Of a stretch of DNA of 64,000 nucleotides, positions 28,111 through 32,920 are shown one piece after another. Each line of letters starts with the position of its first letter. Position 1 is the first letter of the stretch. Made by a program: the position numbers and the translations under genes. This DNA comes from Negativicutes bacterium (GTDB taxonomy: Bacteria > Bacillota > Negativicutes > JBAXTZ01), in the NCBI GenBank assembly GCA_041666525.1, contig JBAYGT010000001.1:132014-196013 (forward strand), in the 5' to 3' direction. The notes beneath the pieces are model-generated. The model ran no database searches and was not told the DNA's origin. It worked only from the letters and a program-made list of their open reading frames with translations.

Positions 28111-28124
28111 TTATCTTTCAATCC

Positions 28125-28153
28125 TTGACATAAACTTGTAATTTCCATAAAAT
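28125..28153 (+). promoter_or_regulatory. Sigma70-type promoter for the ATP-grasp / alpha-E / transglutaminase operon
   Basis: TTGACA at 28125-28130, an exact 17-nt spacer, and TAAAAT at 28148-28153. The first CDS starts about 97 nt downstream with GGGGTGA upstream of its ATG. Confidence 0.6.
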
Positions 28154-28250
28154 AGTATCATAAACTCAACGAACAATAAATAGCATTCAGACCTTTGTCT
28201 AAAAAAAACTGCAAAGGCTGCTTTTTTTATTATGATGTAGGGGTGAAATT

Positions 28251-29693
28251 ATGTTTGAAAAATATCAGCCGACACCTAAAGTATACGATGAAATGTTCAA
28301 CAAAGATGGATCTGTTCGCCCTCACTATACTGAGTTGTACAAAACTTTTGACAAGCTTGACATGAAAAATCTTGCTGCCCGTCAAAACCGTATGGATGAC
28401 GAGATGATAAAGCAGGGCATTACTTTCACGCTGTACAACGAAGATAGTAACGCGCTGGAGCGTACCATTCCTTTTGATATTATTCCAAGAATCATTAGTC
28501 ATGACGACTGGACTTACATGCAACGCGGACTTAAGCAACGCGTAATCGCGCTTAATCGCTTCATTCATGATATTTATCACGAGCAAAGAATTTGCCGAGA
28601 CGGCGTTGTACCCCGCAAACAAATTGTTACTAATAAATACTTTCGTCCTGAGATGATGCACCAAAATGTTCCCGGCGACGTTTATATCTGCTGGTCGGGA
28701 ATTGATTTAATTCGCGCCGGTGACAGCGATTATTATGTACTGGAAGATAATTTGCGGACACCTAGCGGTGTTTCTTATCTATACAAGAATCGCTGGATGA
28801 TGGAAAAACTTTTTCCAGAACTGTTTTTTAATTATCACGTTATGAATTTAGATCGCGGCTTGCACCTGTTCCTGCGCGCATTGCGCAGTATCGCGCCTAA
28901 TAATAATTCTGATCCTACTGTCGTTTTGCTCACGCCCGGACGCTTTAATTCTGCTTATTTTGAGCACACCTTCCTTGCGCAAGAAATGGGACTGATACTG
29001 GCAGAAGGACAAGACTTAAAAGTTGTGAACAATAAAGTTTACCTTAAAACTTTACACGGATTGCGTCAGGTTGACGTAATATATCGGCGAATTGACGATG
29101 ATTTTATTGACCCGTTGGCATTTCGTCCCGATTCAATGCTGGGCGTTCCCGGTTTAATGAACGCATACCGCGCTGGAAACGTCGCTTTAGCCAATGCACC
29201 GGGTACCGGCTTTGCTGACGATAAAGCGGTATATACCTACGTACCGGACATTATCCGTTATTACCTGAACGAAGAACCGATACTGAAAAATGTACCTACC
29301 TATACTTGCGCACTCGAAGATGATCGAAAATTTGTCCTAGATAATATTGAAAAAATGGTTGTAAAGGAAACGTCCCTTTCCGGTGGCTACGGTATGTTAA
29401 TCGGACCGCACGCTACAAAAGAAGAACATGAACAATTTCGGCGGCAAATTTGTGAACGACCGGATGATTATATTGCCCAACCCACAATTCAGCTTTCAGC
29501 AGTACCTACCTTATGTGACGGTGTCATCGCTCCGCGGCGCGTAGATTTGCGTCCATATATTGCATTAGCTGCTAACGAAGAAATCAACATCATTCCGGGT
29601 GGTCTCACGCGCGTTGCGATGCGCGAAGGTTCGCTAGTTGTCAACTCCTCTCAGGGTGGCGGCAGTAAAGATACCTGGGTAATCGAAGAATAA
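28251..29693 (+). CDS. Circularly permuted type-2 ATP-grasp protein
   Basis: 480 aa. It matches the family that forms conserved operons with alpha-E and transglutaminase-like proteins. Confidence 0.75.
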   Translation: MFEKYQPTPKVYDEMFNKDGSVRPHYTELYKTFDKLDMKNLAARQNRMDDEMIKQGITFTLYNEDSNALERTIPFDIIPRIISHDDWTYMQRGLKQRVIALNRFIHDIYHEQRICRDGVVPRKQIVTNKYFRPEMMHQNVPGDVYICWSGIDLIRAGDSDYYVLEDNLRTPSGVSYLYKNRWMMEKLFPELFFNYHVMNLDRGLHLFLRALRSIAPNNNSDPTVVLLTPGRFNSAYFEHTFLAQEMGLILAEGQDLKVVNNKVYLKTLHGLRQVDVIYRRIDDDFIDPLAFRPDSMLGVPGLMNAYRAGNVALANAPGTGFADDKAVYTYVPDIIRYYLNEEPILKNVPTYTCALEDDRKFVLDNIEKMVVKETSLSGGYGMLIGPHATKEEHEQFRRQICERPDDYIAQPTIQLSAVPTLCDGVIAPRRVDLRPYIALAANEEINIIPGGLTRVAMREGSLVVNSSQGGGSKDTWVIEE

Positions 29694-29708
29694 TAGTTTG
29701 GAGGTCTT

Positions 29709-30683: not shown

Positions 30684-31594
30684 AATTGAAAATCATGCAT
30701 CTCAACGAATATAGTTATGGTAATTTCATTACCGACGATGACAAAGAAACACATTTAGAACCTACTCTCATTGATAATAGTATCAACGAACTTCGGTTGA
30801 AACCACGCACTAATTATCGCCAGCACCTCGAATACTTTGATTTGCGAACTTCTCCTGCAGCTCCGGTTCGTTGGCATAAGGACTATTTTCATAGTGATAT
30901 AGCTTGTTTTGAAATAGTAGAACCGCACGACCAACTTGCTATTATTACAACTTCAGTAGTTTTAACCGCGGAAAACGAACCACGTTCCGGTTATGTTCTC
31001 AAACCAGAAGATGAACGGGCATTATTAAACTCTTCGCAATTTCAAAATCGGTATGCGGAATATTTATATATGACACCACAAACTCTTATTACTAAATCGG
31101 TAGCTGAGTATCTTAAAGATTTATATAGCCAGTGTTCTACTTCATGCATCTACGATTATGTACGCAGCCTCACTCATCAGATTCATGAAACGTTTCTGTA
31201 TCAGCCTGGATTAACCAATATCCACACAACTGTCGATGACACCGTGCGGTTAAAGGGCGGTGTCTGTCAAGACTTTGCTCACTTAATGCTGGCAACCTGC
31301 CGCAATATCGGCGTTCCCGCGCGTTATGTCAGCGGTTATCAATACATCGGCGATCTTCCGGAAAATGTTGGCAACGATAACTTGACTGTTGCTATGCATG
31401 CCTGGATTGAAGCATTTATTCCCGGCGCTGGTTGGCTGGGCTTTGATCCGACCAATGATAACATCATGAGTTGGCGGTATGTGAAGGTTGCAGACGGCCG
31501 AGATTATAGCGATATTGTTCCAATAAAAGGGGTATATCGCGGTAGTGCAATCCAAACTCTAAACGTAAAGGTTAAAATTGACAAACTTGATTAA
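30680..31594 (+). CDS. Transglutaminase-like cysteine protease-fold protein (TGc core with bacterial N-terminal domain)
   Basis: 304 aa. The Cys-His-Asp triad is intact: GGVCQDFAHL, HAWIEAF, GFDPTND. Confidence 0.8.
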   Translation: MKLKIMHLNEYSYGNFITDDDKETHLEPTLIDNSINELRLKPRTNYRQHLEYFDLRTSPAAPVRWHKDYFHSDIACFEIVEPHDQLAIITTSVVLTAENEPRSGYVLKPEDERALLNSSQFQNRYAEYLYMTPQTLITKSVAEYLKDLYSQCSTSCIYDYVRSLTHQIHETFLYQPGLTNIHTTVDDTVRLKGGVCQDFAHLMLATCRNIGVPARYVSGYQYIGDLPENVGNDNLTVAMHAWIEAFIPGAGWLGFDPTNDNIMSWRYVKVADGRDYSDIVPIKGVYRGSAIQTLNVKVKIDKLD

Positions 31595-31630
31595 ACAAAA
31601 AAACCACCTTAACGGTGGTTTTTTTGTTTA
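31595..31630. terminator. Bidirectional rho-independent terminator between the transglutaminase gene (+) and purA (−)
   Basis: AAAAAAACCACC-TTAA-CGGTGGTTTTTTT, a perfect 9-bp stem flanked by A/T runs on both sides. Confidence 0.85.
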
Positions 31631-31636
31631 ATCACG

Positions 31637-32920
31637 CTAATATATTTCGTTAACAAAAATCGTCTGATCACGCGCCGGACCTACTGAAACGATTGCCAGC
31701 GGAACTCCGGCCAATTCGGCAATACGTTCAACATATTTACGAGCCTTTTCCGGCAGTTTTTTGTAATCACGAATATCGCTTATTGGAACTTCCCAGCCGG
31801 GAAGCGTTTCCAGAATCGGCACCATAGTTCCGAGTTTCTCCAAACTCGCTGGAAAGTCAGTTACAACAGTATCACCACATTGATAACCAGTACAAATTTT
31901 CACTTCATCCAGTTCATCAAGGATATCTAGTCTGGTAATAGCTAAATATGCCAAACCATTTACCGATGCCGCATATTTTATCATGACCATATCCAACCAA
32001 CCACACCGCCGCGGACGACCAGTGGTCGTTCCATATTCCTTACCAGTATATTGAATATACTGGCCCACTTCATCATCCAATTCAGTAGGAAAAGGACCTT
32101 CGCCTACTCTGGTAGTGTAAGCCTTCACCACGCCAACTACTTTGTCAATTTTTGTCGGGCCAATACCAGCACCAACACAGGCGCCTCCGGCAGTAGGGTG
32201 TGACGATGTTATGTACGGATAAGTACCATAATCAACATCAAGCAAAGTTGCTTGCGCGCCTTCTAAAAGAACTTTCTTACCAGTGGTAATCGCTTGATTA
32301 ACATAAGGAATCGTGTCACAGATATACGGGCGCAACTCTTCGCCATATTGCAAATATTCTTGATAAATTGCTTCGGTTTCAAAACCGGTTTCGTTATATA
32401 TTTTCTCAAAATATTGATTTTTCGTCTCTAAGTTAGCGGCGATTTTTTCCCGCAACAACTCCGGCTCTAGCAAATCAGCAATTCTAATACCTACACGATT
32501 ATGTTTGTCGGCGTAACAAGGACCAACACCACGCTTGGTGGTGCCGATTTTATTTTTTCCAAGAGCTTCTTCCTGCACCTCGTCGAGCAAACGATGGTAC
32601 GGCATTATTACATGCGCCCGATCAGAAATTTTTAACTCAGCTACTTTTATTCCCTTAGCCTTGATATCCCGCAACTCTTTTAGCAGCACCGGCGGATCTA
32701 TAACCACGCCATTTCCCAAAACACAAACTTTGTTTTCGTATAAAATTCCTGAAGGCAGCAGATGCAGTTTAAATTCTTTACCATTAGTTATTACTGTATG
32801 TCCCGCATTATTTCCACCCTGATAACGCACAACAACATCCGATTTTTCGGCAAGATAATCAACAATTTTCCCTTTACCTTCATCGCCCCACTGAGTACCT
32901 AGAATAACTGCTACAGGCAT
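31637..32920 (-). CDS. purA: Adenylosuccinate synthetase
   Basis: 427 aa with [11 protein letters not shown] (P-loop) and GTTKRGVGP motifs. Confidence 0.95.

Follow-up and report, generated by a model that had tools for sequence, protein, structure and literature searches.

The "Anbu operon" was reportedly described by Valas & Bourne in 2008 and by Iyer et al. in 2009, with protein or peptide tagging as its proposed role. We analyzed a relative of this operon in a 64,000-nucleotide stretch of DNA (the window) from an uncultured Negativicutes bacterium, which is represented by a metagenome-assembled genome, or MAG (GCA_041666525.1, contig JBAYGT010000001.1, positions 132,014 to 196,013). The window contains an intact stand-alone copy of the conserved COG2308/COG2307/COG1305 operon, whose genes encode an ATP-grasp protein, an Alpha-E protein, and a transglutaminase-like protein, and it has no Anbu. 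Our favored reading, which we hold with a little less than even confidence, is that the operon would encode a cytosolic synthetase/amidase pair that acts on a small peptide-amine conjugate.

Some experimental data are available for operons of this type. In Yersinia, the ATP-grasp protein releases orthophosphate from ATP, and the Anbu of the same study had no peptidase activity (PMC6376114). Nitrogen limitation strongly induces the operon in Pseudomonas and Burkholderia (PMC3235984, PMC8050072, PMC5491218). There is also a structural-genomics crystal structure of an ATP-grasp ortholog, Mfla_0391 from Methylobacillus flagellatus (PDB:3N6X); its name, "putative glutathionylspermidine synthase," is a guess, with no assigned activity. 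The first-pass annotation of this DNA stated that the three-gene unit had only been characterized computationally. Given the crystal structure, the phosphate release, and the nitrogen induction, this is slightly overstated, but none of these results gives a product. The annotation's statement that the product is not known does hold: a full-text literature search, in which subscription journals were largely uncovered, found no experimentally defined product for the operon, including in relatives.

The window's copy resembles the Anbu operons of Pseudomonas, Yersinia, and cyanobacteria in that the same three families are encoded in the same order on a single strand, with the catalytic residues intact. 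It differs from them in four ways: there is no Anbu; the promoter is of the SigA type instead of being dependent on NtrC and sigma-54; the host is an anaerobic member of the Negativicutes; and the Alpha-E and transglutaminase-like proteins are only about 30-36% identical to the versions from outside the Bacillota. The three genes are:

28251-29693, plus strand: circularly permuted type-2 ATP-grasp protein (480 amino acids), a predicted carboxylate-amine ligase
29709-30683, plus strand: Alpha-E protein (324 amino acids), the all-helical partner of the ATP-grasp protein
30680-31594, plus strand: transglutaminase-like protein (304 amino acids), a papain-fold Cys-His-Asp protein with a Bact_transglu_N domain

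Searches with Pfam profiles recovered all three of the families that had been proposed from the sequence. The ATP-grasp protein matches CP_ATPgrasp_2 (1e-158, across profile positions 1-374 of 374) and CP_ATPgrasp_1 (7e-142), the second protein matches Alpha-E (5e-66), and the third matches both Bact_transglu_N (1.2e-13) and Transglut_core (1.7e-18). (The ATP-grasp protein is already present in NCBI, as "circularly permuted type 2 ATP-grasp protein.") The gap between the ATP-grasp and Alpha-E genes is just 15 nucleotides and carries a GGAGG ribosome-binding site. The start codon of the transglutaminase-like gene overlaps the stop codon of the Alpha-E gene in an ATGA, as had been claimed; it can be read directly at 30680-30683. 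The catalytic residues of the transglutaminase-like protein were also correctly described as intact. At least 93% of 43 homologs retain Cys196 (within GGVCQDF), His240, and Asp256, which align with the corresponding residues of PDB:3ISR and of TgpA (PDB:6G49). There is no room in the operon for a precursor-peptide gene, and the three proteins all lack an N-terminus that resembles a signal peptide and any hydrophobic stretch of transmembrane grade. No PADLOC defense model matched any of these proteins or the product of the divergent esterase gene (described below), so we rejected an anti-phage defense system.

The operon had been described as the only one on the plus strand among minus-strand genes. 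Across the entire 64 kb, all of the long open reading frames (ORFs), not counting shadow ORFs, are on the minus strand except for these three genes. The GC skew is about 0 across the operon (28000-31600), versus about -0.2 in the neighboring minus-strand genes, and the GC content is the same. The operon is thus a lone head-on unit, and since its GC content is unchanged, it is not compositionally foreign. (It is probably head-on to replication, and it has been kept at its site in at least three related lineages.) Neither Anbu nor paralogs of the operon's genes are encoded elsewhere in the window: tblastn with the Anbu-like neighbor from a distant locus (L080) gave a best E value of 4.3, and we found no paralogs.

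The closest described form of the operon is the one in Paenibacillus durus, Bacillus sp. 1NLA3E, Neobacillus, and the Sporomusaceae-like "bacterium BFN5," which has an identical architecture, with ATGA coupling, variable flanks, and no Anbu. The proteins from the window are 60-65% (ATP-grasp), 42-47% (transglutaminase-like), and 36-39% (Alpha-E) identical to those of this form, and the next relatives of the ATP-grasp protein, at the same 60-65% identity, are all from Bacillota (a second Negativicutes MAG, BFN5, Neobacillus, Bacillus, and Paenibacillus). We found the three genes in the same order in the second Negativicutes MAG (L005) and in BFN5, P. durus, and Bacillus sp. 1NLA3E (L093, L094, and L095), with unrelated flanks and with neither the esterase nor Anbu nearby; the ATGA junction is also present in P. 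durus and Bacillus sp. 1NLA3E. What sets the window's copy apart is that its Alpha-E protein belongs to a 50%-identity cluster of its own, that it faces its neighboring genes head-on, and that it lies beside an esterase gene. Anbu was absent from every Bacillota and Negativicutes locus that we examined, and the window's copy shows that in Bacillota the three-gene form without Anbu is the complete unit. The window's copy is an ordinary member of a long-known orphan operon. It had been put forward as a tractable entry point, but this is a weak claim, because the host is uncultured and the same three-gene form is available in Paenibacillus, Neobacillus, and Bacillus, which can be cultured and to which this copy adds little.

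Beyond the Bacillota, we considered 80 loci from other phyla, which were the matches listed for Alpha-E in GTDB (the best is 34% identical). The ATP-grasp gene lies directly upstream of Alpha-E at 64 of the 70 of these loci that could be evaluated, and at 34 of 67, a transglutaminase-like gene follows Alpha-E within 1.6 kb. The only recurrent extra neighbor is an Anbu-like protein of about 250 amino acids (17 of about 82 listed loci). At 22 of the 80 loci, a second, paralogous gene set that includes a long ORF lies beside the three genes. For example, at locus L052 (3607-10496), the second set encodes a protein of 1130 amino acids whose domains are Bact_transglu_N, Transglut_core, and DUF2126 ("putative amidoligase"), an 857-amino-acid fusion of CP_ATPgrasp_2 and Alpha-E, and another small transglutaminase-like protein. 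Many loci from outside the Bacillota have a second set with this composition (proteins of about 1100, 850, and 290 amino acids, the middle one being the fusion), including L010, L015, L029, L035, L044, L053, and L064. The transglutaminase-like protein from the window is slightly nearer to the second-set type (about 32% identity) than to the type found with stand-alone Alpha-E in cyanobacteria (about 30%). The Alpha-E family comprises 11,595 clusters at 50% identity. Because the operon's family is so large and phylogenetically broad, and its product has not been known since 2008-2009, solving any member would matter; if a peptide-amine conjugate is the product, then a function would be assigned to an orphan operon whose Alpha-E alone accounts for over 11,000 protein clusters.

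The ATP-grasp protein is the most conserved of the three. It is 53% identical to 3N6X and 50-55% identical to homologs from unrelated phyla, with about 120 invariant columns, all of which are kept in the window's protein. No sequence method links it to a characterized enzyme: Pfam (at E ≤ 10), NCBIfam, and a profile search against PDB returned just 3N6X and the two CP_ATPgrasp models, and we rejected a relationship at the level of sequence. Its structural neighbors are only 8-13% identical to it. The characterized enzymes within its structural group are glutathione-type synthetases, GspS, TryS, YgiC, and Cp1B; beyond these, the structural scores drop to 11 (PDB:3K1T) and then to below 8 for GshB, LysX/ArgX, RimK, Ddl, tubulin tyrosine ligase-like (TTLL) enzymes, and the macrocyclases of ribosomally synthesized and post-translationally modified peptides (RiPPs). 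The chemistry that is common to the group is the joining of a small carboxylate to an amine via an acyl-phosphate.

GspS and TryS consist of a permuted ATP-grasp domain joined to a papain-like amidase. The window's ATP-grasp protein is just 9-10% identical to the glutathionylspermidine synthetase/amidase of E. coli (PDB:2IO7) and to trypanothione synthetase (PDB:2VPM), and it has no match to GSP_synth. The amidase of those enzymes is a fused CHAP domain, whereas here there is a separate transglutaminase-like protein and an additional Alpha-E subunit. Pfam finds no N-terminal amidase domain on the ATP-grasp protein, and the likeness to GspS and TryS is an analogy, not membership. Identity is similarly low (10-13%) to YgiC/YjfC (PDB:7UKA), to the fungal Cp1B (PDB:9CJN), and to eukaryote-type glutathione and homoglutathione synthetases (PDB:1M0T and 3KAJ). 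YgiC and YjfC are cited as peptide-spermidine ligases in PMC12568646, and the reaction of Cp1B couples an amino acid with epoxysuccinate (PMC12568646). YgiC/YjfC, Cp1B, and these glutathione-type synthetases all lack an Alpha-E or thiol-enzyme partner, and their substrates are unrelated to anything encoded here. By sequence, the ATP-grasp protein does not fall within the eukaryote-type glutathione synthetase family. Nor does it resemble RiPP macrocyclases or RimK-type ligases, as its ATP-grasp domain is permuted and there is no precursor or protein substrate nearby.

We propose that the ATP-grasp and Alpha-E proteins would form one enzyme, because their genes are neighbors at nearly all loci and many genomes encode the two as a fusion. 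This complex would convert a carboxylate to an acyl-phosphate at the expense of ATP and would then couple it to an amine. Alpha-E, which is rich in invariant arginines, is proposed to be a substrate-binding or regulatory subunit. (Its invariant residues are mostly arginines plus two ER motifs; R15, E18, and R19, as well as E174 and R175, are present in the window's protein.) For the ligase's substrate, we favor a ubiquitous small molecule or a short peptide over a dedicated protein; the clade of the ligase's fold, its cytosolic location, and its high conservation all point this way, as does the lack of a precursor gene. The likeliest product would therefore be a cytosolic conjugate of a small molecule or short peptide, analogous to glutathione, glutathionylspermidine, or the peptide-spermidine products of YgiC. 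Overall, the structural placement of the ATP-grasp protein with glutathione, glutathionylspermidine, and peptide-spermidine ligases, along with the fusions of ligases to thiol enzymes, makes small-molecule ligation the first possibility to consider.

The Cys196-His240-Asp256 enzyme may act on the same kind of amide, via a thioester intermediate, as an amidase or transamidase that would trim, recycle, or transfer the product. We suggest this because operons and fusions connect its domain with amidoligases and because GspS and TryS also pair an ATP-grasp domain with a papain-like amidase. The ligase and the thiol enzyme would then be counterparts of the two halves of glutathionylspermidine synthetase/amidase. 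Physiologically, the operon may be connected with nitrogen economy, for which the expression data are from Proteobacteria only. A more specific version seems possible, although it is rather doubtful: a hitherto undescribed cytosolic peptide-amine conjugate, of a gamma-glutamyl or polyamine type, would be made and then trimmed or transferred, with Alpha-E presenting substrates as a novel kind of subunit for a permuted ATP-grasp protein, and a strongly conserved operator or attenuator within the 140-bp control region would govern expression in this Negativicutes lineage.

Several observations weigh against a synthetase/amidase pair. First, the ATP-grasp protein has no match to GSP_synth or to the glutathione synthetase families of Pfam, even at E ≤ 10, and with structural neighbors that are just 8-13% identical, the substrate may be a protein rather than a small molecule. 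Second, although the structural model of Alpha-E is confident (a predicted local distance difference test score, or pLDDT, of 91) and all-helical, its fold matches generic four-helix bundles only, and the role proposed for it is conjectural. Third, pull-downs in Yersinia detected no stable complex among the operon's proteins (PMC6376114). Fourth, Anbu lies beside the genes at about a fifth of the distant listed loci, and this fits a role directed at proteins or peptides better.

The fifth point concerns Mycobacterium tuberculosis, whose Rv2411c-Rv2409c and Rv2566-Rv2569c we take to belong to the same families, with Rv2567 presumably being a fusion of the type seen at L052. If Rv2569c does belong to the transglutaminase-like family, with its Cys-His-Asp residues, then a serine-protease assignment would conflict with its fold, and the picture of a thiol amidase would fail for Rv2569c. 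Rv2569c was reported to be a secreted serine-type protease that cleaves E-cadherin; it is inhibited by 4-(2-aminoethyl)benzenesulfonyl fluoride (AEBSF) and phenylmethylsulfonyl fluoride (PMSF) and is insensitive to E-64 and N-ethylmaleimide (NEM), and the paper makes no reference to a transglutaminase-like fold (PMC11081392). As for the ligases, Rv2411c and Rv2567 did not make GABA-trehalose, where GABA is gamma-aminobutyrate (bioRxiv 10.64898/2026.04.15.718621). Neither this result nor the protease report gives a product for the operon.

The main rival to a small-molecule ligase is a system for tagging proteins or peptides, in which the ATP-grasp/Alpha-E complex would attach an amino acid or a peptide to target proteins as a tag, the transglutaminase-like protein would be a papain-like peptidase that removes or processes the tag, and Anbu, if present, would degrade the tagged products. 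The recurrence of the Anbu-like gene as the commonest extra neighbor fits this idea, and the link to Anbu is backed by published operon analyses (PMC3235984, PMC5666114, PMC6376114). Papain-fold enzymes are often peptidases, and an increase in protein turnover would agree with the induction by nitrogen limitation (PMC3235984, PMC8050072). Tagging fits the Anbu-containing operons better than a small-molecule ligase does; on the whole we consider it unlikely, if by no means negligible.

The operon's other rivals bear on its control region and its neighbor, so we turn to these features:

28125-28153, plus strand: SigA/sigma-70-type promoter (TTGACA at 28125-28130, a 17-nucleotide spacer, and TAAAAT at 28148-28153)
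28154-28250, plus strand: 5' leader with an invariant block, a weak hairpin, a U-run, and a Shine-Dalgarno sequence; a candidate attenuator or operator
27346-28110, minus strand: esterase gene (Pfam Esterase, 2e-27), divergent from the operon

The near-consensus promoter that had been noted is present. It matches the consensus at 11 of 12 positions and is the top match in a scan of 6 kb, but sites with at least 11 of 12 matches occur 4 times in the 64 kb, versus 2.65 expected, so the match to the consensus is not significant by itself. The support comes instead from three related lineages that share the locus (L089, L088, and L001, whose Alpha-E proteins are 92%, 85%, and 68% identical to the window's). 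The intergenic region of 140 bp (28111-28250) is 0.87, about 0.8, and 0.73 identical to those of L089, L088, and L001, respectively (for L088, this is for the aligned part; identity is 0.69 over all columns), while four-fold-degenerate sites in the flanking genes have an identity of just 0.25-0.45, which is saturated. As the promoter's hexamers and spacing do not vary among the four lineages in spite of this saturation, we take it to be real, and this copy of the operon is probably expressed.

The leader is constrained as well. A block at 28153-28185 (...CATAAACT-N5-AACAATAAATAG...) is invariant in the four lineages. It is followed by a weak hairpin at 28188-28220, by C and U7 at 28221-28228, and by the Shine-Dalgarno sequence AGGGGTG at 28239-28245. 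All four lineages have some hairpin and then a U-run about 20 nucleotides upstream of the start codon. None of the hairpins that precede the U-run is significant singly (z-scores of -0.9 to -2.4), and RNAalifold on the leaders of the four lineages gave -1.4 kcal/mol with zero compensatory pairs and no structure supported by covariation, so we rejected a conserved RNA structure. A riboswitch or another known leader RNA was rejected too: at E ≤ 1, Rfam's matches across 27900-32000 were sub-threshold and on the terminator only, and a scan of the entire window at Rfam's gathering scores found no family (no tRNA, rRNA, or riboswitch among about 60 housekeeping genes). The motif CATAAACT-N5-AACAATAAATAG is not repeated elsewhere in the window, and one scan of metagenomes gave two unrelated chance matches, so we do not consider it to be the signal of a wider regulon. 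From these comparisons, 28111-28250 appears to be a constrained control region, which could be an attenuator or an operator.

Another possible source of constraint is a promoter-like site on the minus strand (TAGACA-17-TATTGT, 28201-28173), which faces the esterase gene and overlaps the leader. Read on the opposite strand, its -10 element is the leader's invariant ACAATA, and the site may account for part of the leader's constraint. If this promoter is real, then the two promoters point toward each other and give transcripts that overlap at their 5' ends.

No site for a known nitrogen regulator turned up in this region: we found no sigma-54 (-24/-12) element and no TnrA/GlnR box in the intergenic region, and a CodY-like match at 28140-28154 is of a kind that occurs at chance frequency (12 found, 9.2 expected). 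This bears on the idea that the operon salvages nitrogen, with the transglutaminase-like enzyme deamidating glutamine residues, gamma-glutamyl amides, or other amides to release ammonia and with the ATP-grasp/Alpha-E complex making or remaking an amide carrier, so that nitrogen would be mobilized in times of starvation. The operon's genes are among those most induced by nitrogen limitation in Pseudomonas putida, and they depend on NtrC and sigma-54 in Burkholderia cenocepacia (PMC3235984, PMC8050072, PMC5491218); ammonia release by transglutaminase chemistry was suggested in PMC6376114. However, besides the control region's lack of such sites, the expression data are all proteobacterial, and an ATP-consuming ligase is not obviously useful for salvage. 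We think that this explanation is quite unlikely.

The divergent gene had been called a secreted-type esterase. It is indeed divergent, but the protein has no signal-peptide-like N-terminus; its Esterase domain begins at residue 26 of 254, and the protein is about as long as the 242-position esterase model. The esterase might be a fourth component of the system that shares the control region and acts on the same metabolite. The pairing of the esterase gene with the operon, along with the 140-bp region between them, is kept in the four related lineages, and this includes L088, in which the operon's other flank is rearranged. On the other hand, the esterase gene always adjoins secD in these lineages, so conserved local synteny explains the pairing. 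Also, no esterase homolog (E ≤ 1e-5) is near Alpha-E at the 80 distant listed loci, and there is no esterase beside the three genes at L005 or in BFN5, Paenibacillus, or Bacillus. We rejected the esterase as a conserved partner of the operon, and a role as a fourth component is very unlikely.

Finally, a true cross-linking transglutaminase that forms isopeptide bonds in proteins (for example, of the envelope or the spore coat), with the ATP-grasp protein as an accessory, would be in keeping with a Transglut_core domain whose catalytic residues are intact, but it is highly improbable, as no signal peptide or transmembrane segment is present in any of the three proteins and the family is tied, via operons and fusions, to ATP-dependent amidoligases, which cross-linking does not need.

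At its 3' end, the operon converges on purA, and the two share a terminator:

31588-31634, both strands: bidirectional intrinsic terminator with a perfect 21-bp stem, a 5-nucleotide loop, and A-run and T-run flanks
31637-32920, minus strand: purA, convergent with the operon

The folding free energies of the hairpin are -28.3 and -30.1 kcal/mol for the two strands (z-scores, -10.5 and -9.2). (A simple terminator scanner missed it because the A and T runs extend the stem.) In the related lineages, the stem is different each time and the layout of A-run, stem, and T-run is the same, which is the pattern expected of a functional bidirectional terminator, as judged by comparing sequences. This agrees with the perfect bidirectional terminator of the first-pass annotation. 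More broadly, the annotation's core reading of a self-contained operon with intact catalytic residues, clean transcription signals, and no known product is upheld, and it is strengthened by the comparative data.

In L088 (7927-12975; 85% Alpha-E identity), the hairpin is a different, 16-bp stem, and the right flank is not purA-purB. Instead, it comprises genes for a flavin adenine dinucleotide (FAD)/pyridine-nucleotide oxidoreductase and the EIIC component of a phosphotransferase system (PTS), followed by upp and glyA. The breakpoint of the rearrangement is therefore exactly at the 3' end of the operon.

Two other genes in the window give some indication of the host. The product of purA is 100% identical to an NCBI protein from a "Negativicutes bacterium" MAG and only 62-65% identical to those of cultured relatives (Lucifera, Sporomusa, Propionispora, and Pelosinus). 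An ORF of 123 amino acids (24724-25095, minus strand) is the counterpart of PF01880 (desulfoferrodoxin) genes in L001 and L088, which fits a strictly anaerobic host.

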